NCBI GenBank assembly: GCA_943372255.1
Contig: CALRXZ020000001.1
Location: 9,191-73,190, forward strand
Direction of reading: 5' to 3'
Length of the DNA: 64,000 bases
Source: Chitinophaga pinensis
Lineage (GTDB): Bacteria; Bacteroidota; Bacteroidia; Chitinophagales; Chitinophagaceae
Shown: one piece after another, positions 3,496 through 64,000 of the stretch
Position numbering within the stretch: position 1 is the first letter of the stretch
Layout of the letters: the number at the start of each line of letters is the position of its first letter
Notes under the pieces: generated by a model
What the model saw: the letters and a program-made list of their open reading frames with translations, nothing else
Databases searched by the model: none
What the model was told of the DNA's origin: nothing
Position numbers and translations under genes: made by a program

Positions 3496-3524
3496 ATTTT
3501 TAAACTGCATACTATCTTTAAAAT

Positions 3525-6627: not shown

Positions 6628-7305
6628 TTGAAAATTCTGATTATTGAAGATGAAATTACCTTGAACCAAAGTATGGTGGAGTTCCTAAGTGCGGCTGGTT
6701 ATCTATGTGAATCCGTATTCAGTTACAAAGCTGCGTTAGAAAAAATTGACTATTACAGCTATGATTGTATTGTGTTAGACATTATGCTACCGGGTGGTTC
6801 AGGCCTAGATCTTTTGAATTATCTAAAGCTTGATAAAAAAACAGATGGGGTAATCATCATTTCTGCTCGCGGTACCCTTGAAGACAAAATAGAGGGTTTG
6901 CAGCTTGGAGCCGATGATTATCTGATTAAACCCTTCCATATTGCCGAACTTAGTGTAAGGATAGCCGCGATTATTAGAAGGAAAAACTTTAACGGGCAAT
7001 CTGTTGTAAGCGCAGGTGATATACAGATTGACACTGTTAGTAAATCCGTTATTATATGTAGCAAAACTGTTGAATTAACACAAAAAGAGTTTCAATTACT
7101 TTTGTTCTTAGTCATCAATAAAAACCGGGTACTATCCAAAAATACAATTGCAGAACATCTTTGGGGGGATAGTATGGACTTTCCCGACAACTATGATTTT
7201 ATTTATTCGCATATTAAGAACCTTCGAAAAAAAATTGTTGCTACAGGCGGAGAGGATTGCATCAAATCCATTTATGGGGAAGGATATAAAATGCAGCTAC
7301 TATGA
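6628..7305 (+). CDS. OmpR/PhoB-family response regulator (REC + winged-helix)
   Basis: TTG start giving MKILIIEDE. Phospho-acceptor context VLDIMLPGGSG, then KPF, and C-terminal ELTQKEFQLL...GEGYK DNA-binding motifs. It overlaps the downstream kinase by 4 nt. Confidence 0.9.
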   Translation: MKILIIEDEITLNQSMVEFLSAAGYLCESVFSYKAALEKIDYYSYDCIVLDIMLPGGSGLDLLNYLKLDKKTDGVIIISARGTLEDKIEGLQLGADDYLIKPFHIAELSVRIAAIIRRKNFNGQSVVSAGDIQIDTVSKSVIICSKTVELTQKEFQLLLFLVINKNRVLSKNTIAEHLWGDSMDFPDNYDFIYSHIKNLRKKIVATGGEDCIKSIYGEGYKMQLL

Positions 7306-8570: not shown

Positions 8571-8598
8571 AATTCAGAATCCCAACAAAATGTAGTGA

Positions 8599-8606
8599 TA
8601 GGTTTG
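8599..8606 (+). promoter_or_regulatory. Candidate Bacteroidota -7 promoter element (TAnnTTTG)
   Basis: Exact TAggTTTG match 12 nt upstream of the 8618 start codon. Motif match only. Confidence 0.25.
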
Positions 8607-8617
8607 AGAAAAAATAA

Positions 8618-9043
8618 ATGATTATGAAGAAAATCTTATTGGTACTTGCTCTTATTATCACAGTAGCAGGTATTGCTCAAAAAAACGATGTTGCCCCCGA
8701 TGCGGCAAAGGCGGCTTTTTCAAAAGCCTATTCCGGAGCCAAAAATGTAAAATGGGAAAAGGAAAATAGTAATTTCGAAGTATCCTTTACATTGAATGGC
8801 CAAGAAGCGTCTGCCATTTATGATTCCAAAGGAACATTGTTAGAGTTTGAACAGGAAATGAAAGTCACTGATCTGCCTACTGTTGTAACAGCTTACATGA
8901 AAGAGCATTACAAAAGGGATACAGTCAAGGGAGCTGCCAAGATTACTAAAGCTGGAGGAGCTGTAAACTATGAAGCGGAAATTAAAGGAAAGGATGTAAT
9001 CTTTGATGAGAAAGGAAAATTTATAAAGGAAGTGAAAGATTAA
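8618..9043 (+). CDS. PepSY-like periplasmic protein (DUF2874-like)
   Basis: Signal peptide. The repeated pattern KAAFSKAYSGAKNVKWEKENSNFEVSF ... VVTAYMKEHY ... YEAEIKGKDVIFDEKGKF is typical of PepSY-like beta-lactamase-inhibitor-fold proteins that sit next to two-component systems. Confidence 0.6.
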   Translation: MIMKKILLVLALIITVAGIAQKNDVAPDAAKAAFSKAYSGAKNVKWEKENSNFEVSFTLNGQEASAIYDSKGTLLEFEQEMKVTDLPTVVTAYMKEHYKRDTVKGAAKITKAGGAVNYEAEIKGKDVIFDEKGKFIKEVKD

Positions 9044-9281
9044 AATTGGCAATATTTCTATTGCCTTACTAGGCCCACTTAAACCATTTATGATTTGTTT
9101 CATAGGTGGTTTTTTATTTTATGCCATGTTCTACCCTTCCTTACAACTTCTTATAAATCTTTATTTCGAAAGCAACCTCCAAAACTTTTTCAAAGTATTA
9201 ATATAGACTTTCGTTATCAACTGCCTTTTGCAAATATGGCTTTTGCCATGCTTAAAACAACTGTTGCACCTGCTTCTATGA

Positions 9282-9766
9282 TTAGTTCAATTTCCGAGGG
9301 GGTATAACCGACCATCATTCAGTTTTTACGAATACTTTGTAAAAATTGATAAAAATATTTTTGATAAAATCAGCTGGAAAATTAAGTTAGGTAGTATAAA
9401 ATTAGTTGTACGTTCTAATGAATTCAGGAATATTGAAATCCCCATTACAGTAATGGCTGAGGTATCGGGTACAGTTTACCAGCAAACAGAAAATGGGAAA
9501 ATCCCAATGGAGCGGATTTATATAGATATTTATAATGAGCAAGGAGTGCTTGCTGCAAAAATATTATCAGAGGCAAATGGATATTATAGTTACTTAGGAT
9601 TACCCCCTGGTATATTTAAATCAGGCCAGATGCAGTTCAATTAAAAAAACTCAACTTACAATTCTCAGAAAGTGAGTTAATATGTATTATTAAATCAAGC
9701 TTTAATGGAAATACTTACCAGAACAATGATTTTATTTTAAAGAAGATTTCTCAATTAGTCCCTTAA
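9282..9766 (+). pseudogene. 3' relic of a larger gene ending in a CarboxypepD_reg-like domain; 5'-truncated and frameshifted
   Basis: The reading frame opens at 9282 with no plausible N-terminus. It reads ...IEIPITVMAEVSGTVYQQTENGKIPMERIYIDIYNEQGVLAAKILSEANGYYSYLGLPPG. The protein-like sequence then continues in another frame after about 9617 (IRPDAVQLKKLNLQFSESELICIIKSSFNGNTYQNNDFILKK, stop 9764-9766). The track ORF 9453..9644 is only the middle piece. Confidence 0.4.
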
Positions 9767-12562
9767 ACCCTCTCCACCCTTCTTCCCAAACTTTCTAGGA
9801 TAATAGGCAAAAGTGAGCATAAAATACTGCTGCAGACCATTGGTGATATTGGTAGATGTACCGTAAGAATTGACAGAGTTGGTAATGTTTTGGTATTGTT
9901 TTAAAATATCCATAGCAGCCAATTTTAGTTCTCCTTGCTGCTTCATGAATCTATAAGTGGCAAATGCATTCCAAAGTACCGTAGGTTTGGCTAGACTTGA
10001 GTTGTTTATATGGTCAAGGGTAGTGCCAATACTAAAATCTTTTGGATAGTTGAGGTTGATGCTAATATTGGTGGTATTGCTACTATTGGTAAAATTGTTG
10101 AGTTGGCTAACCGTTTGACTTACTTGATTAAACTCCAGTCTTTCTGCAATACTGGCTACCAACATAGTTGCTAAAGAAAACTGCAAAGTAATTTGATTAG
10201 ACAACCTTGAGCTTTTACTAATGTTATAGATACCATCAATATAATTGGGTTGATTGCCCAAATTATAGAATCCATTATACATGAGTTGCAAGGTGTTTTT
10301 CTTCATCCGTTTTGAAACATTCACATTGTAATTCAGATTCAAGTTTTTGCTTTGGTCTGCATTAATAAAATAAGTAATCCTTTTTCCGGATAGGGCATTG
10401 ATCACACTGTCTGTAACTGGGTTTTGTGAAAAGTTATAGTTAGCGCCAAAAAAAGCATTGATGCCATAGGGCGATTTCTGGTTCTGTGTATTATAGTTCC
10501 CATTCAAGTTAAGGTTATGGATCACGGTATTTTTAAGGTTGGGATTACCTACGGTGATATTGTAAGCATTGATATCATCTACAATAGTGAATAAAGCATC
10601 TATTGAAGGATATTCAAAATTCTTATTGTAATTCATGGAAAGATTATAATTATTTTTCTGGCTATTGAAACTATTATAGTTGATACTAGCTTCATACCTG
10701 AAAAATTGCATTTGCCTGTTTAGGTTACGCCAGGCTATAGAGGATTGATTATTTTCCCATCTAAAGTCTTCCATGATTTTTGCTTGAATATTCAAATTTT
10801 TATAAACAGATAATCTATTGTTGTTAAAGGATTTTGCTAATGACAAACCAGGTATATAACCCATTGTCTTTCTGTTATTATCATTGGTGAGGTTATTATT
10901 GGTAATAAAGTTTTTGGAGGCACTGTCATAATCACTCACCCTTGAGTTACTATTGGATTGATTAATATTAAAAGATTGGTCAAATCTTAGGTCAATTCCT
11001 CCCAAATTGTATCTCCCAAACAAAAGTCTGCGCAATCCTCTATAAACTAGATTAGCCCTAATTCCAAAATTGCTGTTGTCATTTAGGTAAAGACGGTTAT
11101 AAGAAGTATCCTTATTATTTACTGTAAAAGACTTAAAAACGCTGACTACATTTCTTTCTGAATTGGACTGTGAATTTTGAAGGTTAGCATTAAAACTGAA
11201 GTTAGTCAATGGCTGATCATTGTCAGATTTTGAATAACTCAGATTCAAATTTTGATTATTGGATTGACTAGTTTGTTTGCTTATAACATCATTGGTGCTT
11301 TGAATGGCCCCTTTGGCATCAGCGGTTTCAGTAAGGGTGGTAGAAACAGCTTTTCTATCATTGATACTGGCAGAACCACCTACGTTGAAATTATCATTGT
11401 AGGAATTATTTTTTACATAATTGAATCCAATATTATGATTGTTGCTGTTACTGGCTTGCTGCCCCTCTTCTTTGATCAATTGTTCCGCTCCTGCAACTAT
11501 TCTGTTTTGGATGCGCAGGTTGGTTACCCAACTATCGCCACCACTAAAAGTATAATTGGCAGTGAGACGGTTGTTTTGTCTACTATTGTTTTCATCTTTA
11601 AAATTTTGTGTAAGTGAAAATCCTACTGAATGATTCTTATTTATGCCACTTACCCCAAACCTACCCGTTCTAAACAGGTTGGGATTGTTGGTTCTATAAG
11701 TATTGTTTTGCATCATCTCATCTAGGTTAGCAATATTTTTATTGATATTATTGTATCCACCACCAACACTTAGGCTGAATTTTTTATCATAAGTCTGCAA
11801 AGCAAGGTCAGATTCAAAACGGTCATCCGTTCCCAATCCTGCGCCACCTTTTCCAAAATAGCCTTTCTTGGCAGTCTCCTTTAATTTGATATTCATGGAC
11901 AAGATGGAATCAGTTTGCTGTCTTCCTTGATTTCCAATATTCTCCCTGTCAAATTCTTGGTATAATTGAATTTTATCAATGGCAGATTTAGAAAGGTTTT
12001 GTGTAGCAATTCTAGGATCTGTTGATCCGGCAAAGGGTTTACCGTCTACAAAAACGTTTTGCACTTTTCTACCCGATACTGTGATACTACCATCGGCCCA
12101 AACCGTCATGCCGGGCACTTGGTTTAATAATTCTTCTACAACTTGGTGGTCTTTTAATTTGAATGCAGCAGGGTTAATCTCTAAGGTATCGCCATTCATG
12201 CGCACAGGAATCACACTTTTGACCACAACAGAGCTGCTGTCTTTGGCATTATAAGATAGATAGATATTCAAGCTGTCTTTTCCAGTTACCAGATATGGAG
12301 CATTATAAGTATTGTATCCTACATAACTAATATTGAGTAATAGTTTGGTTTTGAGAGGAAGTTTTTCAAATGAAACCGTTCCATTCTTATCAGATAATTG
12401 ATAGGTGAGTAAACTTGAATCGGGCCTAAACAGACTTACCGTAGCCATTTCAAGCACGGTTTTACTGGTAGAATCATAGACCACCAGTTTTAGTTTTCCT
12501 GTCTGGCCAAAAGCCATCTCAACAGAACCCAGTATAATCAAGAACAGGATAATTTTTTTCAT
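9755..12562 (-). CDS. Outer-membrane beta-barrel protein with N-terminal CarboxypepD_reg domain (TonB-dependent-receptor-like), Asn/Ser-rich
   Basis: The likely start is MKKIILFLIILG at 12562 (signal peptide), 1 nt after the stop of the upstream gene. There is a plug-like segment (VFVDGKPFAGSTDPRIATQNL), long N/S-rich barrel repeats and a C-terminal FMLTFAYYPRKF. Confidence 0.7.
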   Translation of the reverse strand: MKKIILFLIILGSVEMAFGQTGKLKLVVYDSTSKTVLEMATVSLFRPDSSLLTYQLSDKNGTVSFEKLPLKTKLLLNISYVGYNTYNAPYLVTGKDSLNIYLSYNAKDSSSVVVKSVIPVRMNGDTLEINPAAFKLKDHQVVEELLNQVPGMTVWADGSITVSGRKVQNVFVDGKPFAGSTDPRIATQNLSKSAIDKIQLYQEFDRENIGNQGRQQTDSILSMNIKLKETAKKGYFGKGGAGLGTDDRFESDLALQTYDKKFSLSVGGGYNNINKNIANLDEMMQNNTYRTNNPNLFRTGRFGVSGINKNHSVGFSLTQNFKDENNSRQNNRLTANYTFSGGDSWVTNLRIQNRIVAGAEQLIKEEGQQASNSNNHNIGFNYVKNNSYNDNFNVGGSASINDRKAVSTTLTETADAKGAIQSTNDVISKQTSQSNNQNLNLSYSKSDNDQPLTNFSFNANLQNSQSNSERNVVSVFKSFTVNNKDTSYNRLYLNDNSNFGIRANLVYRGLRRLLFGRYNLGGIDLRFDQSFNINQSNSNSRVSDYDSASKNFITNNNLTNDNNRKTMGYIPGLSLAKSFNNNRLSVYKNLNIQAKIMEDFRWENNQSSIAWRNLNRQMQFFRYEASINYNSFNSQKNNYNLSMNYNKNFEYPSIDALFTIVDDINAYNITVGNPNLKNTVIHNLNLNGNYNTQNQKSPYGINAFFGANYNFSQNPVTDSVINALSGKRITYFINADQSKNLNLNYNVNVSKRMKKNTLQLMYNGFYNLGNQPNYIDGIYNISKSSRLSNQITLQFSLATMLVASIAERLEFNQVSQTVSQLNNFTNSSNTTNISINLNYPKDFSIGTTLDHINNSSLAKPTVLWNAFATYRFMKQQGELKLAAMDILKQYQNITNSVNSYGTSTNITNGLQQYFMLTFAYYPRKFGKKGGEGLRD

Positions 12563-51139: not shown

Positions 51140-53941
51140 ATGAGAATTTTTTACTGCTTATTGGCAATGATTATCTGTTCAGAAGCCATTTCCCAACCCT
51201 TTGCTGCCTTGCCTTCTAGTCCTGCTGCCGTTACCAAAACGGGTAGATTGGGTCTGCGATATACATTTGTCAGCAGCACTTTATTACAACCGGCTATAGA
51301 CAACGAGCCCAATCACCGAGTAAAAGTGGAAAATATTGGTCCTAACGCTAAGACCAATGTTAGGGTCAGTTACACGGGATTAAATGCAGATAGTTCTGTG
51401 CCTACTTTAAGTGGTGGCGGTTTTGCAGCATTCCCAAATGGTGGTTCAGTAAACTTGGCTTCAAGAGATACTACCATTGTTCAAGGATGGTCAAGTGGAT
51501 GGAGAGAGTGTAGTTGTATCAATGATGGCAATAACAATAAATTAGTCAGATTCATATTTGCCTACGATTCTACCTTTTATGGTCCGGATGGTTTACCCGA
51601 TGGTACCATCGCGCTAGCAGATACCATTATCCAACCCTTGGTGATTGTTCAAAGATCTCAATCACAACAAACACAAATTGCTGTCATTCAAACTTCTGCC
51701 ACACAAAGTTTAAGAGGACAATTTATTATACCTGGATATATAAAAAGTCTTGTTTCGCTAAACACAGTATCCATTGCAACTAATGGACTAACCTGGGCCT
51801 TTTATCCCAATACCCCTTCCTCTATTACAACAGTTGATAGTATCGGAAATAGATATTATAGATTTAATATCACGGTAGACCCTAGATCTGATTATAGAAT
51901 TGAAGCAAAGTTCAATTCTACAAATACTTCTTTATTAGTACCTGCAACAACCATTGTAGTGCCAAATTCCGCATCAAATGATACATTAAGAGCAACGGTT
52001 CTGCCCTATGGAAAAGCATCGTTTACCATTGACTCTGTGATCACGCATGAAACAGAAGTAGGATTTTGGAGAACGATTTTTGCGCCTGGCGATAGCACAA
52101 TTACGGTATTCCCCGGCCAAGAAAACTGGTTCGGAGCTACTAATACTGAACGCAATGCCAATAGGGCCAAATCAAAAATTATCAAGTACAAAGCAGACTG
52201 GGCGGGCTTTGGAACCAAGCTTTGGGAATTTGCTTTGCCTACAGAATCTTGGGGTGGAGGCGTGAGTAAAGATGGTAAACATGTAGTTTATATGATTAAC
52301 CAAAAAGGTAGAGAAAGTGGATTAGAAAATGATCCAACAGTAGATTGGGTGGGTGTTTTGGATGGAACAACAGGACAAAAAAAATGGGGTTTAAGAGGTA
52401 ACCAACAAATACAAGAAGGGTTAGAAGTTGCCATTTCCTCAACTGGAACTTATATAGCCATGGGAACTACTGGAAGTGGTAGATTTTCTGTCTATAAAAA
52501 CAATGGTAATAGTGGAACACTTCTATGGAGTAATCCAGCAGACTTTGCAAATGGCAATAAGGATATTGGACAAATTAGGAAGATTGTTTTTTCTGACAAT
52601 GACCAATATGTATATGCTGGTTGTGGAGACATGTATTTGAGAAAGTATAAAATTGCAGACAGTAGTTTGGTTTGGAAGGCCTATATAGGTGGATGGCCAT
52701 TTGTAAATGGATTAGTCATTGCCAACGGTTACGTGATTACTGGAACCAAGTCAAAAGATAGAACCGTAATTAGAGATTCCGATGGTGCAGTACAATACTT
52801 TGCAGGTTCATTTGGATATGATGCAACTGTAGATAGTTCATTTACTGGTCCGGTATTTGGCTTTGGACCAATTGTAACCGAAAGAACATCGGGCAGGGCC
52901 ATTGCAAGTGTAGGAAGTAATTCTGTGAAGCATAGTATTCTCAATGGAAGTTTTGTTTTAAGTGCTGATAGAACGGTAGATGTGTATTCCCGTTATGGTG
53001 GCAACAGTTTGGCTAATCGTGCTACCTATATGGGAGCAGGATCAGGAGAACAATCACAATCCGGATGGGCAAGTGCATCAGGAGATAGAATAGTTGTTGC
53101 TGCAAGAGATTTGACAACAGGTGTTTTTCCTAGAAAGACTGCAGCCTTTTATAAAATCAATAGAAGTATTAATAGATATCCAACCATGGATTCTATTGGC
53201 GCAAAATCTTTTACAAAATTTGATACGCTAAGGTTAAAAATTAGCTATCGCGATTTCAACGATTATAATACCGCAAATACGCAATTGTCTTTAACAGCAA
53301 CTGCAGAAACTGCCGATCTAAAAACCATTGTGCGGGGCGATTCTGTGATAGTTTATGGGGCTTCAGGTTTTAATGGACTAGCAGCCATCACCGTGTCAAT
53401 TGCAGAAACAGCAACCACTGAAAAATGGACGGTTTCTGAGCGAATTCCTGTTACGGTTAATTGCAATACTATAGCTACACCTACCATTACTAAAGACATT
53501 GACAACTTCTTAGTATCATCATCATTGTATAATAATACTTGGTACAAAGACAATGTGCTTATGACTGATACTACTCAGAAAATCAAACCCATATCCAGTG
53601 GTAATTATTCTGTAAAAATAGTTCAAGGTGGTTGTAGCTCAACCCTATCTTCGGCTACCAGTTATATTCCAACTGCCCTAGTTAATTTAAGTGCAGGCCA
53701 ATTTATTAAAACCTTTCCAAACCCGGTACATAGTGAATTACATATTCAGTATCAGTTAAATGGTATCACCACAATGAAAGCGCTTTTGTATGATGTGTCT
53801 GGTAAATTGATATTGCAGCAGAACAGTCTTTCCAATGGTGGTAGTTTGCCCATGGGAAATCTTATCAGGGGTTCATATCTTTTAAGATTATATGACAAAA
53901 ATGGAAAACTGTTGCACACAGAAATATTAATCAAGGATTGA
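51140..53941 (+). CDS. Large T9SS-secreted protein with beta-propeller-like central region and T9SS type A sorting domain
   Basis: 933 aa with a signal peptide. The central repeats have a PQQ/WD-like pattern (KKWG..., LLWSN..., LVWKAY...). The C-terminal FPNPVHSELHIQY...GSYLLRLYDKNGK is a Por secretion tail. Confidence 0.7.
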   Translation: MRIFYCLLAMIICSEAISQPFAALPSSPAAVTKTGRLGLRYTFVSSTLLQPAIDNEPNHRVKVENIGPNAKTNVRVSYTGLNADSSVPTLSGGGFAAFPNGGSVNLASRDTTIVQGWSSGWRECSCINDGNNNKLVRFIFAYDSTFYGPDGLPDGTIALADTIIQPLVIVQRSQSQQTQIAVIQTSATQSLRGQFIIPGYIKSLVSLNTVSIATNGLTWAFYPNTPSSITTVDSIGNRYYRFNITVDPRSDYRIEAKFNSTNTSLLVPATTIVVPNSASNDTLRATVLPYGKASFTIDSVITHETEVGFWRTIFAPGDSTITVFPGQENWFGATNTERNANRAKSKIIKYKADWAGFGTKLWEFALPTESWGGGVSKDGKHVVYMINQKGRESGLENDPTVDWVGVLDGTTGQKKWGLRGNQQIQEGLEVAISSTGTYIAMGTTGSGRFSVYKNNGNSGTLLWSNPADFANGNKDIGQIRKIVFSDNDQYVYAGCGDMYLRKYKIADSSLVWKAYIGGWPFVNGLVIANGYVITGTKSKDRTVIRDSDGAVQYFAGSFGYDATVDSSFTGPVFGFGPIVTERTSGRAIASVGSNSVKHSILNGSFVLSADRTVDVYSRYGGNSLANRATYMGAGSGEQSQSGWASASGDRIVVAARDLTTGVFPRKTAAFYKINRSINRYPTMDSIGAKSFTKFDTLRLKISYRDFNDYNTANTQLSLTATAETADLKTIVRGDSVIVYGASGFNGLAAITVSIAETATTEKWTVSERIPVTVNCNTIATPTITKDIDNFLVSSSLYNNTWYKDNVLMTDTTQKIKPISSGNYSVKIVQGGCSSTLSSATSYIPTALVNLSAGQFIKTFPNPVHSELHIQYQLNGITTMKALLYDVSGKLILQQNSLSNGGSLPMGNLIRGSYLLRLYDKNGKLLHTEILIKD

Positions 53942-53959
53942 TTTGGATATGTTTGTATT

Positions 53960-54985
53960 ATGAATACTGCAAATCTACATTCAGAAGAAAAACTTAATTC
54001 CATAAAATGGGGCATCATAGGATGTGGCAATGTAACAGAAGTAAAAAGCGGTCCTGCATTTAATAAAGTAGCTAATAGTAGCTTGGTAGCTGTGATGAGA
54101 AGAGACGCAAGTCTAGCGGAAGATTATGCAAAAAGACATGCTGTACCTAAATGGTATAACAATGCCATTGAATTGATCAAAGACCCAGAAATCAATGCTA
54201 TTTATATTGCTACTCCACCCAAACAACACGAGGAATATGCCATTGCGGCCATGCAAGCTGGAAAACCTGTGTATGTAGAAAAGCCCATGGCATTGGATTT
54301 GGTAGCATGTAGACGCATGGAACAAGTTTCAAAAGAAACAGGTATAAAATTGGTGGTAGCACACTATAGAAGGGCATTACCTCTTTTTATAAGAGTCAAG
54401 GAATTGCTAGAACAGCAAGCTATTGGAGATATTCGTTTTGCAAGAATCAGTTTGCTACAACCAGACCAATCTGCCATGATTGCCAAAACTGGGAATAATT
54501 GGCGTGTGGATCCCGCACTTGCTGGTGCTGGATTATTCTATGATTTAGCTCCACACCAATTAGACCTGCTGATCCATTTTTTGGGTAAACCAACAGATTC
54601 TATTGGTATAGCTGTAAACCAAGCCGGATTGTATGCAGCTGAGGATTTGGTGGTTGGAGTTGCACAATTACCCAATCAGGTATTGTTTAATGGAACTTGG
54701 TGTTTTACCACACCAGCGGGAAAGGAAGAAGATTTGTTTGAAATTCAAGGTTCAACAGGAAGTTTACGTTTTGCCGTATTTGGGCATGAATTAACCATTG
54801 AGCGCAATGGAATGATTGAAACAGAAAAATTTGAACCTCCACAGCATATTCAACAACCCATGATTGAAAAAATTGTCCCATACTTTTTAGGAAATGCAGA
54901 CAACCCTTGTTCTGCTGCAGATGCCATTCAATCAATGGAGATGATGGAGCAATTTGCATATGGAACTAACCAAACATCTAAATAA
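53960..54985 (+). CDS. Gfo/Idh/MocA-family oxidoreductase (cytoplasmic)
   Basis: Rossmann N-terminus WGIIGCGNV and the family motif VYVEKP. Confidence 0.85.
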   Translation: MNTANLHSEEKLNSIKWGIIGCGNVTEVKSGPAFNKVANSSLVAVMRRDASLAEDYAKRHAVPKWYNNAIELIKDPEINAIYIATPPKQHEEYAIAAMQAGKPVYVEKPMALDLVACRRMEQVSKETGIKLVVAHYRRALPLFIRVKELLEQQAIGDIRFARISLLQPDQSAMIAKTGNNWRVDPALAGAGLFYDLAPHQLDLLIHFLGKPTDSIGIAVNQAGLYAAEDLVVGVAQLPNQVLFNGTWCFTTPAGKEEDLFEIQGSTGSLRFAVFGHELTIERNGMIETEKFEPPQHIQQPMIEKIVPYFLGNADNPCSAADAIQSMEMMEQFAYGTNQTSK

Positions 54986-54991
54986 GCATCC

Positions 54992-56350
54992 ATGAAATTG
55001 TTGAAAGTCTTGGTAAAAAGCATCATGTTGCTGATAGCGCTGATGATGATCTTACTGCCCTTGTTTATTCGTAGGGCCGATAGGACACCTTTTGAGCAAT
55101 CAGGATTTCATGCAGAAATGCTTGCTTTATTAGATAGTGCAAAAGAACATGCTCCCAAAATAGACACCAGCACCATATTGCTGGCAGGTTGGTCCAAAGC
55201 CAATATCACTCCCGCCAAACCTATGCCCACTGCGGGTTATGGCAAAAGAGAAGGCAAGCCTTACTTAACCATTCATGATAGTATTTATGCTAGGGCCATT
55301 TATTTGCAACAGGGACAAACCCAAGCAGCCATTGTTAGTTGTGACTTACTCATTATTCCACCCGAGCTAACCCTGGTTTTAAAACAGTTGATGCCAAGTA
55401 TTGGATTAGATTTTTCGCAAGTTTATATTGGTGCCACCCACTCACACAATAGCATTGGTGGATGGGGCAAGCGATATATTGGAGAATTGTTTGCGGGTAA
55501 ATATGATTCCTTGATGGTGCAGGAATTGGCAACAAAAATTGTCCATGCAGTAAACATCGCCAAAGGCAAAGCAAGGCCCATGCAATTGTCTTATGCTAGC
55601 ATAGCCAAACCCGAACTGGTAAAAAATAGAACGGTAGGCGATAAAGGAACAGAAGATCCTTTTCTGCGCATGATCTATTTACAAGGCTTAGAGCCTAGTG
55701 CACCCAAAGCCATTCTTACTTCTTTTGCAGCACACGCTACCACGCTGAGTGATTCGGTCATGCGTTTGAGCAGAGACTATCCAGGTCAATTGGTAGATGG
55801 CTTAGAGCAACATCTTGGTTTTGACCAAGCCATGTATTTGGCAGGGGCAGTAGGTAGCATGGGTCCAGAAGAAGAAGGGAATACAGATTGGGATCAATTA
55901 TCTTATTTGGCAACTGGTCTTGAAACTGCCATTCAAGAAAATAGGAACATCACTGCACTAAAACCAAATTTGCAAGTCATGACCCTACACTTACCCATGC
56001 GTGAGCCACAATGGCGATTTGCAAAAGACTGGTGTTTTAGACATTGGCTATGGACCAAGCTTTATGGTGATTATGACAATGAAGTAAAAATGTTGCGCCT
56101 AGGAAATTTGGTCATGGTGGGATTACCCTGCGATTTTAGTGGAGAGCTCATGAAAGACCTAACAGATTATGGTGCCACCAAGGGTAAACAATTAATGGTT
56201 ACCAGTTTTAATGGAGGCTATGTGGGTTATATTACCAAAGACAATTATTATGATGAGCCAGGTTATGAAACCAGGATCATGAATTGGTTTGGTCCAGGCA
56301 ATGCAGCTTATTTTAGTGAAGTAGTTCGCAAATTGGTTGATCTACCTTAA
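54992..56350 (+). CDS. Neutral/alkaline non-lysosomal ceramidase N-terminal-domain family protein, membrane anchored
   Basis: N-terminal TM segment. [28 protein letters not shown] and [12 protein letters not shown] match the neutral ceramidase N-terminal domain pattern. Confidence 0.65.
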
Positions 56351-56396
56351 ACTGTTTGCTATTGCTTATCAACCGTTATCTTCGCTCAAAAAAGAT

Positions 56397-56621
56397 ATGG
56401 CAACCAAGATTACGATTAACGATAATGGCTCTATGAAAGTAGAAGGTGATTTTAGCATTGTAGACAGAGAAGGAAATGTCTATGATTTAGCTGGAAGAGA
56501 AGTAGTGGGTTTGTGCCGTTGTGGTCTTAGTAAAAACAAACCCTTCTGCGATGGGTCGCACAAGGGTGAGTTTCAGCATGAGGCAAAGGCATTTGCCCTT
56601 CCTCCTAAAAAGACTTTGTAA
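56397..56621 (+). CDS. CDGSH-type iron-sulfur domain protein
   Basis: The start [11 protein letters not shown] is at 56397. It has the exact CDGSH cluster motif [16 protein letters not shown]. Confidence 0.85.
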
Positions 56622-57068
56622 TTAGATCAGTTCTACTTTGGTCATTACATCGCCACCTTTAATTTGGTCTAAAACATCCAAACCATCGGTGAGTTTGCCA
56701 AAGCAAGTGTGAACACCATCTAAATGTCTAACACCAGCACGGTTGTGGCAGATGAAAAACTGAGAACCTCCGGTATTTCTGCCACGGTGTGCCATAGACA
56801 GAACGCCGCGGTCATGTATTTGCTTTGCTCCGCTGGTTTCACACTGAATGGAATAACCTGGGCCACCGGCACCAGTACCATCGGGGCAACCACCTTGGAT
56901 CATGAAATTGGGGATCACACGGTGAAACGTAAGACCATTATAATAGCCTTCGTTGATTAATTTTTTAAAGTTGGCAACAGCAATGGGTGCGTCATCATCG
57001 TAGAGTTCAAAACTCATGATGCCCTTTGCAGTATGGATCTGGCCCTTTGTTAAGATTTGTTCGCTCAT
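56622..57068 (-). CDS. Cyclophilin-type peptidyl-prolyl cis-trans isomerase
   Basis: Motifs FHRVIPNFMIQGGCP, SMAHRGRNTGGSQFFI and LDGVHTCFGK. Confidence 0.9.
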   Translation of the reverse strand: MSEQILTKGQIHTAKGIMSFELYDDDAPIAVANFKKLINEGYYNGLTFHRVIPNFMIQGGCPDGTGAGGPGYSIQCETSGAKQIHDRGVLSMAHRGRNTGGSQFFICHNRAGVRHLDGVHTCFGKLTDGLDVLDQIKGGDVMTKVELI

Positions 57069-57127
57069 GGAATTTATTTTTTGCGAAACTAATCTATCAA
57101 AGGCATTTTACCATCATTTGAGCGATT

Positions 57128-57754
57128 ATGGAATCAATTGCAGCAGACTTACAGGAATTTAAATTGGGCAATCAAATATTAAAGATTTGGGTGCCCAATT
57201 TTCAAGCCTTACAAACAAGTCATCAATTAAATGCCTACGGCGATGCCCCTTTTTGGGGAAGGGCATGGCCTTCTGCACTGGCCATGATTCAATTCTTAGA
57301 AGCAAATCCTATCTATATTAAGGACAAAAAAATAGTAGAAATAGCAGCAGGATTGGGGCTTCCCGCTTTTTATGCAAGCCAATTTGCTTTGCAAACCATT
57401 GTGTCTGACTATGCTAAAGACGCAGTGCAATGGTTGGAAAAAAACATAGAACTCAATCAGTTTGAAAACATAAAAGCCAAACAAATTAATTGGCATCAGT
57501 TGCCCTCAGACCTTCACGCAGATACGCTCTTGCTCTGCGATGTGAATTATGACCCCAGTCAATTTGAAGCATTGCTTAAAATGATCCATCATTTTTTAGC
57601 AAAGGGTACCACCATTCTACTATCTACCCCTCAACGTTTGGTGGGAAGATCCTTTATCAGTTCCTTTTTGGAACATGTATCAATAAATGAAGTCTTGGAA
57701 ATTCAGCAAGATGAAAAAATACACTTGATAAATGTGTTGGTCTTGGTACAATAG
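57128..57754 (+). CDS. Class I SAM-dependent methyltransferase (Methyltransf_16/lysine-MTase-like)
   Basis: WPSALAM...KKIVEIAAGLGLPAFYAS (motif I), then VSDY and LLCDVNYD (post-I and motif II). Confidence 0.6.
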   Translation: MESIAADLQEFKLGNQILKIWVPNFQALQTSHQLNAYGDAPFWGRAWPSALAMIQFLEANPIYIKDKKIVEIAAGLGLPAFYASQFALQTIVSDYAKDAVQWLEKNIELNQFENIKAKQINWHQLPSDLHADTLLLCDVNYDPSQFEALLKMIHHFLAKGTTILLSTPQRLVGRSFISSFLEHVSINEVLEIQQDEKIHLINVLVLVQ

Positions 57755-57835: not shown

Positions 57836-60001
57836 ATGAGAAAAACAGCGCTAACCTATGCTTCAAGAGAAGAGATAGAAGTTGATTTGCAATGTATAGA
57901 AGGCGAAGTGCCAACAGACATGGATGGATTTGTATTCATCAATTCCCCTGTTGGAACGGTAAACAGTAGTACACCCATCCCAAAAAAGAACCCAGATGGA
58001 ACGGATAATCCAGAGTGGGGGCAAATGGTTTTTAATGGAGACGGGATGTTGTTCCGATTTGATTGCAGTGTGCCCGGAAAAGTAAGGGTAAAATCGGCAC
58101 TGCTAAAAACACCTTGTTATTTTGCAGATGAAGCAAGTAAGTGGGGAACAGATTATTATAAAAAAGGTATTTTTTTCAAGAGCAAAGGAATTGCACGCAC
58201 TTCATCTACTTTGGGATCTCGCAACCAAGCAAACACCTCTATAGCTGCCTTTAAATTTCCAGGAGATCAGCATACTAGGATTACTGTCAATTTTGATGCG
58301 GGACGTCCTTTTGAAGTGGATCCAAAATCTATGAAAGTGCTTACTGCCATTGGTTATAATAAAGAATGGAGTGAATCATTGTCCTTTGTAATACAAGAAG
58401 ATGTTTTTGAATTAATACAATCCTCTGCACACCCTTGCTATGATCCGGTGACCCAGGAATTTTTTACGGTTTGTTTTAGAAAGAACATGAATAATTTGGT
58501 CTTCACCAGTATTTTCAGTTTAGACCTTACCAGAATTTGGCATGTTACCAATCGCTTTTTTAAGAAGGTCTATCGTTTTTTACAATCTATTGTGCGATGG
58601 ATTGGTAAATTATTTAGAGGCGTTGCTAGGGCTTTCATGGGTTTTGTTTTCCCAGCCTATGTGCAGCAATTAAAGGCAGATGATACAAGTCCCAATGAAG
58701 AGAAACAGGAAGACATTTTTGGAATGGTCAATTCTGTTAGTATCCTAAAATGGACAGGTAAAGGAAAACTACAAAGCTGGAATATAGTTGGCCCCGAAGG
58801 CAAAAATTTGGTGATTTATCAGACCATGCACCAAACCGCATTGAGCAAGGATTTTATCATTTTGGTAGATAGTTCTCTCAAGTTTGCGCTGGATATTATG
58901 ACCAATATGCCTTTCCCAAAATTTCCCATACTCAATAATATCATACGTTGGTGTGTAGCAAAAGCCATGGAACCTAATACCCCTCTGTATTTGGTTAAAA
59001 GAGCTGATTTAGTGGAGGGTGTAACAGATGTAAAAGCACGAAAAGTAATGGTTGATTTAGAAACCGTGCACTATTCTGTTGAGTATGAGAATCCTAATAA
59101 TGATATTACTATTTATACATCGCATAATGCGGCATCCTGTGCGGCAGAATGGGTAAGACCCTATGATACCTTGGGCATTGATTCAACCAAACCGGTTTTG
59201 GAAAATACCATCGGCCTTATGGCCAGTGGAGAAATGGATATTGGCAGAGCGGGTAAGTATGTCATTAATGGAAACACTGGTGCCCAAAGGGAGTCCGTAA
59301 AAATCTGGCAAAAGGGGTTTGAGGGAGACGATACTACCCAACTCAAAGAAGCACATACTTGGGCAGTAGGGCTCAATACCTTTAGAGACATGGCATCAGC
59401 TGATACACCTACTAATACAATTCCCTATATATTTTGGCAGTCTTACGGATTAGACTATAGACTGCTAACCACTTTTATTCGGAAAATGTATAGCAAATAC
59501 CAACACCGAAAAATTCCGGTTAAGAAAATGTTGGAATATACCAAGAAGGGTGTGCCATTCTGTTTGAGTAGAATGAATACAGCTACTATGGAATTTGAAG
59601 ACTGGTTTCATTTTGAGATGAACCAGAACCTTAGATCCCTGCAGTTTGTACCAAAGAAAAATGCTTCTCCCAACTTGCCTCCAGAACTAAATGGTTATAT
59701 CTTGTGTACCATGGTCAATGGAACGGAAGATCTTGTGGCAGATGAATATACCCGTGAAATTTGGTTCTTTGATGCTGCAAATTTAAAACAGGGTCCTGTT
59801 TGTAAAATGGCGCATGATGCACTCCAATTTGCTTTTACCATACACTCCGTATGGATTCCAGATTGCGAACCATCACCGGCAGATTATCTGGTTGATCCTG
59901 TAGAAGATTATACAGAGGTGTTGAATAGATTCACTAACCTTGAAAAAAAGGAATGGCTGGAAACTTTTATGAAAAAAGAAGTATTTCCACACTATCAATA
60001 A
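57836..60001 (+). CDS. Carotenoid oxygenase (CCD/RPE65/lignostilbene dioxygenase) family protein, enlarged (721 aa)
   Basis: Four candidate iron-ligand His contexts occur in family order: SSAHPCYDP (H199), TMHQTALSKDFIIL (H332), ETVHYSVEYE (H412) and FAFTIHSVWIP (H670). The N-terminus GEVPTDMDGFVFINSP is typical of the family. Confidence 0.7.
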   Translation: MRKTALTYASREEIEVDLQCIEGEVPTDMDGFVFINSPVGTVNSSTPIPKKNPDGTDNPEWGQMVFNGDGMLFRFDCSVPGKVRVKSALLKTPCYFADEASKWGTDYYKKGIFFKSKGIARTSSTLGSRNQANTSIAAFKFPGDQHTRITVNFDAGRPFEVDPKSMKVLTAIGYNKEWSESLSFVIQEDVFELIQSSAHPCYDPVTQEFFTVCFRKNMNNLVFTSIFSLDLTRIWHVTNRFFKKVYRFLQSIVRWIGKLFRGVARAFMGFVFPAYVQQLKADDTSPNEEKQEDIFGMVNSVSILKWTGKGKLQSWNIVGPEGKNLVIYQTMHQTALSKDFIILVDSSLKFALDIMTNMPFPKFPILNNIIRWCVAKAMEPNTPLYLVKRADLVEGVTDVKARKVMVDLETVHYSVEYENPNNDITIYTSHNAASCAAEWVRPYDTLGIDSTKPVLENTIGLMASGEMDIGRAGKYVINGNTGAQRESVKIWQKGFEGDDTTQLKEAHTWAVGLNTFRDMASADTPTNTIPYIFWQSYGLDYRLLTTFIRKMYSKYQHRKIPVKKMLEYTKKGVPFCLSRMNTATMEFEDWFHFEMNQNLRSLQFVPKKNASPNLPPELNGYILCTMVNGTEDLVADEYTREIWFFDAANLKQGPVCKMAHDALQFAFTIHSVWIPDCEPSPADYLVDPVEDYTEVLNRFTNLEKKEWLETFMKKEVFPHYQ

Positions 60002-60004
60002 CGC

Positions 60005-63000
60005 ATGGATCTAGGTAAAATAAAAGAAACAAAAATGCTGGAAACCATCCATGCTCACTTCTTTCAAAAGACGGTGGATGGCAGTGTTGTGTTGTTAAAA
60101 GCCTATAAGTCTCCATGGCCTGGCATGGCAGATAAAGAATTGGACAATGCCAAAATGCTCCCTTTAAATGGGCGTTTTTTTACGCCTATTGGTAAAGACG
60201 GGGAAGCTGGATTATATTATCCTTATTTTCAATTACAATCACTTGATCAGTGGATAGAAAGCCAACAAATTGACCGAGTATATACTAGAAAAGCTTTTGC
60301 CATTGCCAAACAATTAATACAGATTGTTGCTCAATTACATAAGGCAAAGTATTTACACGGGGCTATAAACCCACACCATTTACTAATAGATAAAAATGAT
60401 CAACTTCACTTGAGTGAATGGACATTTTTATCCGATGCTCGAAAGCCTAGGTTATTAGAAAAGGAGCGCTATCTTTCAATTGGATTGATTCACTATATAG
60501 CACCAGAACAAACTGGTAGGTATAATGTAAAGCCTGGCTATTATACAGATATGTATGGCATTGGTACTACACTATACAAACTTTTCACAGGGGTAGTGCC
60601 ATTTGATGGAAACGATACCATGGGTATCATTTACAAGCACCTCACTTTTGAGCCGGTTGCTGCCTTTGAGCGAAACCCTTTTATGGGTAAAGCCATTTCA
60701 GGTCTCATTGCTGGTTTAATAAACAAGGATCCCCAAAAAAGATTAATGGGTTCTGAAGCGGCATTGTTTGCAATAGAACAGGCCAAACAAATTTTTGAAA
60801 AAGGAGACTTAGAAGAAGAGTTGGGTATTGTGAATAGTTCACAACAACAACATTTTATACTTACCCATCATTTCCCATCTGTTTTTGAAAATAAAGCAAC
60901 TTATTTTCAAAGCCATTACCATCAATCAGTAGAAGGGGGTGAATGTTTTTTGTTTTTTGTAGAAGGGGTAAAAGGCTCGGGGAAACAATATGCAGTTAAT
61001 CATTTTTGTGAATTGGTTGCCAATAGAAAAAATTTGGTAGTAGATGCCATTTTTCTCAAAGATGATCCTGTACCGTATGATGCATTCAAAAATATTCTAG
61101 ACCAGATTACCAATTATTATCTTTCACAAAGTCAAGAAGAGTTGAATGCATTTATCAATGCCTGTAAAGAACATTTAGGAACAGCTTCCAATATCTTGAT
61201 TGACATTTGCCCAGACATAAAACAGATTATTCCCTATGTAAAACAATACAAGGAAGAAGGTCCCTTGGAATTACAGAACCAATTGATCTATGCTTTTGCT
61301 ACATTTTTGAAAACATTTCTAGCAATGGATAAGCGTTTGCTCATCTGTTTAAGAGATATTCATCATGCGGCCCCACCTGTTTTAAAAATTATTCAAGGTT
61401 TTCTAAATGAGTTTCCTGCAACTAGAATCAATTTCATCTTTACTTATGAAAACCATAAACTAAGTCAGGAACAAATAACCTATATACACAAGTGGCAGAA
61501 TGTAGAAGAACAGGGTTTTGTAAAAGCAAAAATCAACTTACTGCCCCTAACCGCCATCCAAACTATTCAATTGCTTTCTATGGCAGGCCTATGTGAAAAA
61601 GACCTTGAACCAACCACAGCATTGTTAATGCCCAAAACCAGTGGTTTGGTGAATCTCATAGACAAAGCATGTGAAAAATTGCTTGAAACGGGAGGCCTAG
61701 CTTTTGATTATGAAAAGGGTTGTTGGAAGCTGAATAAAGATCTTGCGCTTAGTACCAATATCAATTTCAATAATCCTGCTTCTTATTATGAGGTCTTAAT
61801 TTCTAGACTTACCAATGAAGAATTAATCTTACTTACTTATGCTGCTGCATTTGGAAACACCTTTTGGTTTGAAGTAGTTAAAACAGCCATTAAAAATGAA
61901 AGACTTGCCATTAATTTACTAGACCAGCTTTTGCACAAAGGCATATTAATGCCAGCAGGTAAACATGGATTCTATACATTCAGTGAAATGGAGTTGGCTT
62001 CCTTTCTTTTGCGTAATAGCCCAGATGCAAGTTTACAAGAGATTTATTTGTCCATTATTGCCGCTTATACTAGCCTTCCAGAATCTTCAGAAATGGAGGA
62101 AGAGTTTTTTGTATTGCTAGACAAATTATTGAATGTTCCAGCAAGGTGTTGCAAACCTTTTGAACAAATGCTTTGGAAGGGAATTGAAAAGGCACAAAAG
62201 ATTGCGCTATTTGAAGTCAATTTTCGCTGTTACCGTCATTTAATAGAGATGCTAACACCATTAGATTGGCAGCAACGTTCAGATGAATTGATTGATTTAT
62301 ACATGGAGTACATTAAAGCGGCATCGCTTGTACTAAAATTTGATATTTGCGAAAGCACGTATCAGTTTTTAAGACAAAAGGAATTGACTTCTTTGCAGTT
62401 GGGGAATCTTGGATATTACTATGCCAATGCACTTTTTGTACAGCAGGATTTTAGAAAATCTATACAAGTAATAGCTGAAATTCTACACGCTTTAGATCTA
62501 ACTATTAGTACCCAGCCCAGTTTGACAAAAATTATTTTTTCCATGATAAGCTTGCAAAAAGACATGCGTGGAAAAGACATGGCATTTATTGAGCAATTAC
62601 CAACCGTGTCTGATAGTGTGGCTTTGGTCAAAATTAAGTTGTTACAGAATGCCATGGGGGCAGCTTATTTGTATGCACCCAAAATGATACCAGAACTCAC
62701 TTCTAAGCAACTCTCATTATCCATTAAAAGTGGTGCTTCAGATTTGTTTGGTCTATGTTTGGCTTGCTATGGTTTTATACTGAGTATGTATAGTAATAAA
62801 CCCAAGGAAGCGCAAAAGACCTATGAGATTGCAGTAACCATGAATGAGCGTTTTTCTGATTCGGTTTCCATTGCCACAACTGAATTCTTATACGCCACAT
62901 TTATTGGCATCAACCATCTTTCATGGAAGCAGTGTAGTGAGCGGTTATATGAGAATTACATTTTTAGTAGACAGATTGGTCAAATCAACATTGCCTTTTT

Positions 63001-64000
63001 TAGCCTGATTACCCATTTTAGTAACCGATTTTATGCTGAATCCAATTTGGAGAAAATGCTAGAATCATTGGCAGAAATATTGCCCATTGTTGCTTCAAAT
63101 AAGCAACAGAATGCATTAGAATATTTTGAAATTTTGCGGGCCTTTACTCAAGATTTGATGGGAGAAGAATTTCCTAGTCAGGCCATGGTACAGCACTTGC
63201 CCAATATTAATAGTATAAAAGAAAAAGCCTTTTTGGATGTAGAATATACTGCCCTGAATCATATTCATATTTTGGAAGAAATGCATGATTTCTTTTCAGG
63301 TAATTATGAAGTAGCCAAAAAAAGGGTACAGTTAATGCTTACCATGAAAGATCAATTAGGCATGGTGAACAGTTTTGTGGTACACCATTTTTTCTTGGCC
63401 TTGAAAATGTTGAAGCTAGATAGGTCTTTGCATTTTTGGGAGTATAGATTTGTTAGTAAGACCATTCAATTAATGCAATCATGGGCAAAACAGCAATCAG
63501 AAAACCATTTAGCAAAATCCTGGTTACTCAAGGGTATGTTGGCAGCAAGAAAAAAGCAAACGGCCCAAACCATATTTTATTTACAGAAATCTTTTGATAC
63601 TGCTATCAAGTATGAGCAATACATGACAGCGGGCATTGCTACAAAAGCATTAGCCGAATGCTATCAAAAGCAAGGAATGGTTGAGTTGGAGAAAACTTAT
63701 ATAAGACATGCCCATACCCAATTCAATTTTTGGGGAGCCAAACTCTTAGTTAGACAATTAGAAAAGGAGTATCCATTTTTGATTACAGGTAAAGAGGGTT
63801 ATACTACTCAACGTTTGCACGTAGCATTGGATAATGATTTTCAGAGTTTTATCAAAGCTTCTAATAGCATTGCTTCAGAAATCAATCTAGAAAAGTTATT
63901 GTCTAAACTCATCAGTGTGCTCATTGAAAATGCCGCTGCAGAAAATGCTTTTTTTATTATCCCTGATGCCAATGGGCAGTTTACCATTTATGCTTCTAAA
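60005..64000 (+). CDS. Large multidomain sensor protein (kinase-like domain, AAA_16-like P-loop region, helical/TPR-like region, GAF start); 3' end beyond the window. Not in the supplied ORF track
   Basis: I translated the first 1.2 kb and last 0.2 kb codon by codon and read the rest by eye. An uninterrupted frame runs from the ATG at 60005 to base 64000 (1332 codons). The APE-like motif HYIAPEQTGR and KDPQKRL mark a protein-kinase fold. GVKGSGKQ sits at the Walker A position. The C-terminal DFQSFIKASNSIASEINLEKLLSKLISVLIENAAAENAFFII is the typical GAF entry of the Ser/Thr-kinase, AAA, GAF, His-kinase family. Confidence 0.85.
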   Translation, partial: MDLGKIKETKMLETIHAHFFQKTVDGSVVLLKAYKSPWPGMADKELDNAKMLPLNGRFFTPIGKDGEAGLYYPYFQLQSLDQWIESQQIDRVYTRKAFAIAKQLIQIVAQLHKAKYLHGAINPHHLLIDKNDQLHLSEWTFLSDARKPRLLEKERYLSIGLIHYIAPEQTGRYNVKPGYYTDMYGIGTTLYKLFTGVVPFDGNDTMGIIYKHLTFEPVAAFERNPFMGKAISGLIAGLINKDPQKRLMGSEAALFAIEQAKQIFEKGDLEEELGIVNSSQQQHFILTHHFPSVFENKATYFQSHYHQSVEGGECFLFFVEGVKGSGKQYAVNHFCELVANRKNLVVDAIFLKDDPVPYDAFKNILDQITNYYLSQSQEELNAFINACKEHLGTASNILIDICPDIKQIIPYVKQYKEEGPLELQNQLIYAFATFLKTFLAMDKRLLICLRDIHHAAPPVLKIIQGFLNEFPATRINFIFTYENHKLSQEQITYIHKWQNVEEQGFVKAKINLLPLTAIQTIQLLSMAGLCEKDLEPTTALLMPKTSGLVNLIDKACEKLLETGGLAFDYEKGCWKLNKDLALSTNINFNNPASYYEVLISRLTNEELILLTYAAAFGNTFWFEVVKTAIKNERLAINLLDQLLHKGILMPAGKHGFYTFSEMELASFLLRNSPDASLQEIYLSIIAAYTSLPESSEMEEEFFVLLDKLLNVPARCCKPFEQMLWKGIEKAQKIALFEVNFRCYRHLIEMLTPLDWQQRSDELIDLYMEYIKAASLVLKFDICESTYQFLRQKELTSLQLGNLGYYYANALFVQQDFRKSIQVIAEILHALDLTISTQPSLTKIIFSMISLQKDMRGKDMAFIEQLPTVSDSVALVKIKLLQNAMGAAYLYAPKMIPELTSKQLSLSIKSGASDLFGLCLACYGFILSMYSNKPKEAQKTYEIAVTMNERFSDSVSIATTEFLYATFIGINHLSWKQCSERLYENYIFSRQIGQINIAFFSLITHFSNRFYAESNLEKMLESLAEILPIVASNKQQNALEYFEILRAFTQDLMGEEFPSQAMVQHLPNINSIKEKAFLDVEYTALNHIHILEEMHDFFSGNYEVAKKRVQLMLTMKDQLGMVNSFVVHHFFLALKMLKLDRSLHFWEYRFVSKTIQLMQSWAKQQSENHLAKSWLLKGMLAARKKQTAQTIFYLQKSFDTAIKYEQYMTAGIATKALAECYQKQGMVELEKTYIRHAHTQFNFWGAKLLVRQLEKEYPFLITGKEGYTTQRLHVALDNDFQSFIKASNSIASEINLEKLLSKLISVLIENAAAENAFFIIPDANGQFTIYASK

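Follow-up and report, generated by a model that had tools for sequence, protein, structure and literature searches.

The 64,000-nt window analysed here, a stretch of contig CALRXZ020000001.1 of Chitinophaga pinensis, ends within a long gene whose product we refer to as the sensor. Immediately upstream and on the same strand lies a gene for a divergent relative of RPE65 and the carotenoid oxygenases (Table 1). From the ATG at 60005 to the end of the window at 64000, the sensor frame comprises 1332 codons with zero stops, and the closest in-frame stop 5' of its ATG is the TAA (59999–60001) that ends the preceding gene. At the composition of the window (36% GC, stop probability 0.071), a frame of this length would stay open by chance with a probability of ~4e-43. 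The mechanical list of open reading frames (ORFs) contains only a 78-aa antisense ORF (62419–62655) in the last 4 kb; it omits the sensor, as frames running past the end are left out. An earlier reading, made without database searches (the sequence-only reading), had described a frame open to the last base and left uncalled for want of a stop, and both translation and ORF list agree.

The C-terminus beyond the window was taken from orthologues and from a species-representative genome, L011, whose orthologous gene encodes 1865 aa. Window sensor and L011 sensor are colinear without gaps and 97.2% identical in amino acid sequence; at the DNA level the last 7 kb of the window are 96.1% identical. 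Nine orthologues with 49–94% identity to the window sensor define the clade to which we refer below, and homologues within this range measure 1864–1868 aa. The source lineage is a small freshwater clade of Chitinophagaceae. No transmembrane segment is predicted in the sensor (maximal 19-residue Kyte-Doolittle mean of 1.51), and the protein is predicted to be cytosolic and soluble. Its domain order reads: CP1-type pseudokinase, degenerate STAND-type P-loop domain (AAA_16/COG3899), long arm, GAF domain, signalling helix, class III adenylate cyclase and HD phosphohydrolase.

Table 1. Features of the sensor gene and its upstream neighbour, in window coordinates.
Feature	Residues (aa)	Position (nt)	Strand	Basis or remark
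RPE65/carotenoid-oxygenase-like gene, divergent	721 aa	57836..60001	+	Pfam RPE65; stop 3 nt before sensor ATG
Sensor, first 1332 codons (~71%) of a predicted cytosolic signalling protein of ~1865 aa	1-1332	60005..64000	+	cut by window end, no stop
Pseudokinase domain, CP1-type	1-262	60005..60790	+	Pfam Pkinase, AF2, Foldseek
Beta3 Lys32 (60098-60100) and alphaC Glu45 (60137-60139), retained		60098..60139	+	clade-invariant
Catalytic-loop equivalent YLHGAINPHHLL	116-127	60350..60385	+	phmmer, MAFFT, 150-representative alignment
DFG equivalent S137-E138-W139-T140 (SEWTF, aa 137-141)	137-140	60413..60424	+	Asp to Glu138
Degenerate STAND/AAA_16 P-loop domain	301-480	60905..61444	+	Pfam AAA_16, AF2
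Walker A GVKGSGKQ	321-328	60965..60988	+	Ser/Thr to Gln328 (CAA)
Walker B LICLRDIHH		61340..61366	+	first Asp to Arg450; Asp451 kept
Long conserved arm	481-1280	61445..63844	+	matches COG3899-type region of relatives
GAF domain, first 39 residues	1294-1332	63884..64000	+	homology with orthologues; remaining GAF, signalling helix, cyclase and HD lie past the window

Is the N-terminal domain a kinase at all? Pfam Pkinase matches aa 70–249 (E 1.4e-14), and NCBIfam returns partial kinase-domain matches only, far under the family cut-offs. An AlphaFold2 (AF2) model of aa 1–520, an approach that the sequence-only reading had proposed, reaches a mean predicted local distance difference test score (pLDDT) of 84 and displays a bona fide kinase fold with both lobes complete and, behind it, a P-loop alpha/beta domain. 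The top Foldseek matches are PknB kinase domains of M. tuberculosis, with target TM-scores of 0.78–0.80. The kinase register was set by three independent alignments that all agree: phmmer against kinases of the PDB, MAFFT with PknB and 119 homologues, and an alignment of 150 family representatives. In the first of these, HRDIKPQN is aligned to HGAINPHH and F-D-F-G to S-E-W-T. The Asp of the HRD motif is accordingly replaced by Ala120 (GCT, 60362–60364) and the catalytic-loop Asn by His125. The beta1-beta2 loop, KMLETIHAH, has no glycine, and the Gly-rich loop is thus missing, while the APE motif is kept as IAPEQ at aa 165–169. Lys32 and Glu45 are the sole canonical ATP-site residues retained. 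The replacement residues themselves are fixed in the clade: all nine members carry HG[A/S]...H, and S137, E138 and W139 are invariant. With both the HRD and the DFG Asp absent and the fold retained, the domain falls under the sequence definition of a pseudokinase, and we infer a module without phosphotransfer catalysis. The sequence-only reading had set the same register by eye, from the Asp-to-Ala120 and Asn-to-His changes to SEWTF at the DFG position, had missed neither the absence of a Gly-rich loop nor the retained IAPEQ, and the motifs that it quoted lie at the coordinates it gave.

The adjoining module is degenerate as well. Pfam AAA_16 matches aa 305–472 (E 9.5e-8), and in the AF2 model a strand-loop-helix at 314–338 and parallel strands at 343–349, 444–450 (Walker B), 475–481 and 505–512 show that the P-loop alpha/beta fold is retained. 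The Walker A consensus GxxxxGK[S/T] is replaced by GxxGxGKQ in every clade member, while nearly all other homologues have GK[S/T]. Likewise, Walker B (hhhhDD/E) reads L[R/K/M]D in the clade as opposed to LDD in the family. Both Mg2+-coordinating positions of the P-loop are therefore replaced, and the phosphate-binding Gly and Lys residues are kept. The Gln at the Walker A Ser/Thr position had been spotted in the sequence-only reading and stands, by coordinates and by alignment; the Walker B change had been overlooked. Downstream, the long arm can be aligned end to end with family members (query coverage 92–100%); Pfam finds no model match in aa 481–1280, and no TPR at E <= 1, so that the TPR-like character seen in the sequence-only reading has no backing from Pfam.

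How unusual are these losses? The 150 family representatives come from exhaustively searching 1.84 billion cluster representatives. About one quarter of them have no HxD Asp, while 148/151 keep an intact Walker A Ser/Thr and 142/151 the Walker B DD. A dead kinase is a common state of the family, and a degenerate P-loop is a rare feature, found in 3% or less of the representatives. The claim that the state of the catalytic motifs is unusual thus holds for the P-loop and fails for the kinase, a dead kinase being a family trait given that ~40% of the CP1 family are pseudokinases. As reviewed by O'Boyle, Kannan and colleagues in 2025 (PMC12599244), CP1 proteins are cytosolic, always fused to a COG3899 predicted ATPase and frequently equipped with GAF- or PAS-type domains; almost nothing is known of their role (PMC12599244). 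The sensor combines a kinase-like domain with a COG3899-type predicted ATPase (Pfam Pkinase and AAA_16) and no transmembrane region, and it fits the CP1 family by architecture and by homology to relatives with an HKDxxPxN catalytic loop, rather than by the constraint-based classifier of those authors. The likeness extends to the GAF/PAS domains that often follow and to the large fraction of members that miss at least one catalytic motif; HKDxxPxN, the catalytic loop of active CP1 relatives, is also that of the wider family of the sensor. In contrast, CP1 has been described mainly from cyanobacteria and proteobacteria, whereas the clade belongs to the Bacteroidota, and a degenerate ATPase, an output of cyclase and HD domain, or a conserved dioxygenase partner are not mentioned in that review (PMC12599244).

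The output domains lie beyond the window. In the orthologues, Pfam detects GAF (1294–1434), Guanylate_cyc (1486–1668) and HD (1698–1794), together with a weak HNOBA match at 1412–1478 that reflects the signalling helix. One orthologue, 85% identical, was named 'class 3 adenylate cyclase/predicted ATPase' by JGI. None of the nine orthologues has HisKA or HATPase domains, the C-terminal hallmarks of dual Ser/Thr-/His-kinases, and neither does L011. The sequence-only reading had assigned the protein to the kinase-AAA_16-GAF-output superfamily, with which the homologue architectures agree, and had seen the GAF domain begin at about nt 63830, close to aa 1294 (nt 63884) where orthologue homology puts its start; its prediction of HisKA/HATPase beyond the window proved wrong, as orthologues and L011 carry GAF, a class III cyclase and, at the end, HD.

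Seven orthologues (P0001–P0007) and L011 share the cyclase motifs FTDF (FTDFVDFT in L011), KTIGDAY and YDIWGDTVNTAARM, and with these the two metal-binding Asp, the ATP-specifying Lys/Asp pair and the transition-state Asn/Arg of class III cyclases. The roles given to these residues are established knowledge for class III cyclases. The output of the sensor would accordingly, and almost certainly, be cAMP synthesis. The two most distant orthologues, P0008 and P0009, have lost one metal Asp and the Arg. In the P0008 lineage (L003:8001–13595, L015) and in P0009 the cyclase reads FVEF and NGAY, with Arg replaced by Val or Met, and the HD motif is kept; these proteins would be triple pseudoenzymes. 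The HD signature H...HD...D is represented by H1694/H1698, H1731-D1732 and D1792/D1794/D1796, all invariant in the orthologues (Pfam HD, E ~1e-5). In P0009 the HD domain gives way part-way to a CopD-like segment (Pfam PF05425, C-terminal ~80 aa), which suggests a chimeric contig or a rearrangement.

What might the HD domain do? It is ~50% identical to a very large family of ~195-aa stand-alone Bacteroidota proteins that are annotated merely as HD phosphohydrolases. A small cyclic-nucleotide (cNMP)-binding gene directly adjoins the stand-alone gene in Rufibacter and Daejeonella; loci of the family include L085:5001–6030 and L086:5001–6037. We sampled 80 metagenomic HD neighbourhoods (L089–L168): 25 contain a class III cyclase, and in at least 10 cyclase and HD are joined in one open frame, behind quite different N-terminal sensors (propeller or transmembrane). 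A cNMP-binding gene adjoins the HD gene in 17 of the 80. On account of these single-frame fusions and adjacent cNMP-binding genes, cyclase-HD is a recurrent output cassette and the HD subfamily appears tied to cyclic-nucleotide signalling, which suggests an HD-type cyclic-nucleotide hydrolase. A ~920-aa protein neighbours the HD gene in ~45 of the 80 loci. No report on cyclase-HD fusions was found in the literature.

The gene directly upstream of the sensor encodes a protein ~230 residues longer than the solved carotenoid oxygenases, with a poorly conserved and partly amphipathic insertion at about aa 215–300. Its sequence match to the solved enzymes is marginal (E 0.004). In the family profile, the invariant His199, His332 and His670 align with the first, second and fourth iron-ligand motifs of a NOV1-type oxygenase; the third ligand is unaligned, with His412 and His430 as invariant candidates. 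All clade genomes with intact cyclase motifs carry this gene directly upstream of the sensor. Only two other representatives, P0121 and P0123, combine a dead kinase with a degenerate P-loop, and they group with the clade in 100/100 neighbour-joining (NJ) bootstraps. Both are directly preceded, on the same strand, by an RPE65-like gene of 727–736 aa. In L169 (P0123) the partner is a pseudokinase-GAF-PP2C protein; in L170 (P0121) it is a pseudokinase-AAA_16 ... GAF-cyclase protein split by an insertion sequence (IS). The L170 locus (4001–9993) contains a DDE transposase (7320–8264) that parts pseudokinase and P-loop from the GAF-cyclase remainder; genes for a stand-alone HD protein and a receiver-cyclase protein are found just upstream of its RPE65-like gene.

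The long RPE65-like genes (~720–760 aa) fall into 147 clusters. Two remoter ones, with 35% and 39% identity, were sampled as well, and each has a signalling gene directly downstream. In L172 the dioxygenase gene is followed by a Pkinase-AAA_16-GAF-HisKA_3-HATPase protein without the catalytic Asp and with Walker A Lys changed to Arg; in L171 (Marivirga arenosa CP129970.2, 8001–11755) it is followed by a multi-transmembrane protein with a coiled coil and PP2C. The membrane-embedded partner hints at a lipophilic signal. The PP2C domain of L171 is 38% identical to the output of P0123. Each of the four long sensor partners is without the catalytic Asp and shows an aberrant P-loop. Dioxygenase and sensor are always on the same strand, with gaps from overlapping codons to ~100 nt. 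Across the paired lineages the sensors are 24–30% identical (16% for the L172 sensor), and the dioxygenases that accompany the 24–30% sensors are 54–58% identical (full range 35–58%). We found no literature report of such a dioxygenase-sensor pairing, nor of signalling linked to carotenoid cleavage oxygenases in Bacteroidetes.

Taken as a whole, we read the sensor as a CP1-type pseudokinase, degenerate P-loop, arm, GAF, cyclase and HD protein in which a non-catalytic scaffold takes its input from the dioxygenase and delivers cAMP; we put the probability of this reading at roughly 65%. Kinase and NTPase modules would serve as a non-catalytic regulatory or assembly scaffold, possibly still able to bind nucleotide. 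This scaffold and the ligand pocket of the GAF domain would jointly set the dimeric state of the cyclase via the signalling helix, following the logic of animal receptor guanylyl cyclases, whose class III cyclase is gated by a pseudokinase. The cyclase would make cAMP and the fused HD domain would probably hydrolyse the cyclic nucleotide, yielding a self-limiting synthase/hydrolase. The long, co-transcribed dioxygenase of the RPE65 type is the probable source of the input, whether through its cleavage product or through the enzyme itself; we favour this source because the gene pair is conserved across sensors of 24–30% identity with different outputs.

Several observations weigh against this proposal. 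The window sequence stops before the output domains, so that the output is that of the orthologues and of the 96%-identical L011, and the AF2 model of the cyclase-HD part is of low confidence (pLDDT 63). The function of the HD domain is assigned solely through guilt by association, and a cNMP phosphodiesterase is what we infer from it; the nearest solved relatives by profile search are the uncharacterised Lin1889 and YedJ, and a single-sequence search of the PDB with the HD domain returned nothing meaningful. Sequence-defined pseudokinases sometimes bind ATP or catalyse reactions non-canonically, as exemplified by WNK, CASK and SelO, and here Lys32, Glu45, Glu138 and the Walker A Lys are all retained. 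The link to the dioxygenase is based on five lineages, the P0008 lineage (L003, L015), with its degenerate cyclase, lacks the dioxygenase gene altogether, and the monophyly of fast-evolving sequences in the NJ tree could be long-branch attraction.

Could the adjacency of dioxygenase and sensor simply be inherited synteny, with no functional coupling and with an unrelated GAF ligand as the signal? The P0008 lineage, which keeps its sensor without a dioxygenase, the small number of lineages sampled, and the conservation of other neighbours (HAD, methyltransferase) within the clade only would be compatible with this. On the other hand, the adjacency persists where sensors have diverged to 24–30% identity (16% in L172) and dioxygenases to 35–58%, amid completely different flanking genes and with four different outputs, and we consider mere synteny unlikely.

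The remaining alternatives can be judged by codon alignments between the window gene and its orthologues. The ratio of nonsynonymous to synonymous substitution rates (dN/dS) is 0.055–0.093 for the pseudokinase domain, 0.035–0.056 for the P-loop domain, 0.044–0.076 for the arm, 0.03–0.06 for the cyclase and 0.04–0.09 for HD. Purifying selection on pseudokinase and P-loop modules is thus as strong as on the cyclase. Given the low dN/dS in every domain, the 'dead' domains are functional modules with no sign of erosion.

Such strong selection would also be compatible with catalysis. Kinase, P-loop or both could be atypical yet active by way of relocated or substitute residues, for instance with Glu138 in place of the DFG Asp and Gln328 as a Mg ligand; the Lys32/Glu45 pair, Glu138, APE, the Gly and Lys of Walker A and Asp451 are all retained and invariant. 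This we regard as rather improbable: near the position of the catalytic base, HG[A/S] is fixed and no acidic residue is conserved (P0008 does not keep Asp129), neither a Gly-rich loop nor the catalytic-loop Asn is present, and the two Mg-coordinating P-loop positions have been altered jointly, one to Gln and the other to a basic residue.

The STAND-like architecture with a nucleotide cyclase also recalls antiphage defence proteins of the Avs or Pycsar type, and PADLOC reports weak matches to PD-T4-6 kinases and PycC. These matches are at the domain level only, the cyclase has the ATP-specifying Lys/Asp pair, and the locus synteny is conserved across genomes and of a housekeeping type (PPIase, methyltransferase ... 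rimP-nusA-infB), which makes a defence function very improbable. Even less credible is a decaying relic, a pseudogene in the making whose motif losses are mere erosion. Multiple catalytic motifs have been lost, a Sediminibacterium metagenome-assembled genome (MAG) copy (L012) carries frameshifts and one relative is split by a transposase, but the frame is intact across 1865 codons in at least seven genomes, dN/dS is 0.04–0.09 in every domain, and the replacement residues themselves are invariant across 49–94% identity. The two apparent frameshifts of the MAG orthologue (L012:4001–9592; gene nt ~3500–3617 and ~4816–4846) are probably assembly errors. Finally, a Ser/Thr-kinase-AAA_16-GAF-His-kinase multi-kinase with HisKA/HATPase just past the window, an architecture of many distant homologues (20–25% identity) and the classic HstK/cbSTKIII form (PMC2176072), deserves next to no credence, since cyclase and HD take the place of HisKA/HATPase in all orthologues at 49–94% identity as well as in the syntenic genome with 96% identity.

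As to the surroundings, a block at 51140–57754 encodes a 933-aa protein with a T9SS tail, a GFO/IDH/MocA oxidoreductase, a ceramidase-like protein, a cyclophilin (minus strand) and a Methyltransf_16 protein; related genomes share parts of it in synteny, and L002 has the complete block. Neither a HAD hydrolase nor the Methyltransf_16 gene was retained as a functional partner of the sensor, both being conserved in clade synteny only and absent from the distant pairs. At 59999–60007, dioxygenase and sensor are in the same frame, separated by TAA-CGC before the ATG. Stop-codon read-through from the dioxygenase into the sensor was rejected as well: in L002 there is a 4-nt overlap between the two genes, which are in different frames, and a read-through fusion is therefore unlikely to be meaningful.

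How does the sensor compare with systems already described? Cyanobacterial surveys list the same architecture as the dual kinases HstK/cbSTKIII, and a variant with cyclase output, STK-GAF-CYCc (Tery_2857), was included as early as 2007 (PMC2176072). These share with the sensor the order of N-terminal STK-like domain, long linker, GAF and C-terminal output. Unlike the sensor, they mostly carry HisKA/HATPase outputs, were treated as active kinases with no HD reported, and were not analysed for P-loop degeneration. The literature yielded no report on the combination of pseudokinase, AAA and GAF.

Animal receptor guanylyl cyclases consist of a kinase-homology domain, a coiled coil and a class III cyclase, and in them, too, a catalytically dead kinase fold stands upstream of a signalling helix and the cyclase, with homology to the sensor at the domain level only. 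In contrast, the sensor is predicted to be soluble and ATP-specific, with STAND and GAF modules interposed and an HD domain added at the end. STAND NTPases with sensor arms, such as MalT, PknK of M. tuberculosis and the AAA/TPR-LuxR cyclases of the Rv0386 type, commonly switch by nucleotide-dependent oligomerisation. Like the sensor, they present an AAA_16-type P-loop domain followed by a long arm, fused to a kinase or cyclase. In the sensor, however, other residues stand in for the canonical Ser/Thr of Walker A and for the first Asp of Walker B, and a classical switch driven by ATP hydrolysis is therefore unlikely. The cyanobacterial CyaB1 and CyaB2 are GAF-regulated class III adenylate cyclases and resemble the sensor in the succession of GAF, helical linker and class III cyclase with Lys/Asp as substrate-specifying residues. 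The sensor differs from them in that its GAF domain lacks, by inspection, the NKFDE signature of cNMP binding, and in the 1290-residue pseudoenzyme scaffold in front and the HD domain behind.

The sequence-only reading had already proposed a pseudokinase/pseudo-ATPase scaffold with sensory and presumably His-kinase output; the motif losses stand, the His-kinase does not, and the scaffolding role is plausible as far as sequence can tell. We tentatively carry the proposal one step further, to a possibility that we do not rate as the likely outcome: the doubly inactivated kinase/STAND protein may be the receptor half of an unrecognised two-gene module of Bacteroidota, in which a cue from the dioxygenase, an apocarotenoid-like product or an O2/Fe-dependent state of the enzyme, is bound via a repurposed kinase pocket, arm or GAF and converted into cAMP by a self-limiting cyclase/HD-phosphodiesterase, with PP2C or His-kinase outputs in sister lineages.

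A clade in which a kinase and its attached ATPase are both disabled, yet strongly conserved, argues for a purely allosteric or scaffolding role. The locus offers a defined read-out for such a role, cAMP synthesis with a fused HD domain that is maybe an undescribed bacterial cyclic-nucleotide hydrolase, and the conserved partner, a long RPE65-type dioxygenase, suggests where the signal originates. If the coupling of dioxygenase and sensor holds true, it would represent signalling by oxidative-cleavage products of the apocarotenoid type in bacteria, of which we found no report in the searchable literature, and would provide a first functional context for the CP1 pseudokinase family. The main value of the locus is thus a testable functional hypothesis for an otherwise function-less family of pseudokinases.

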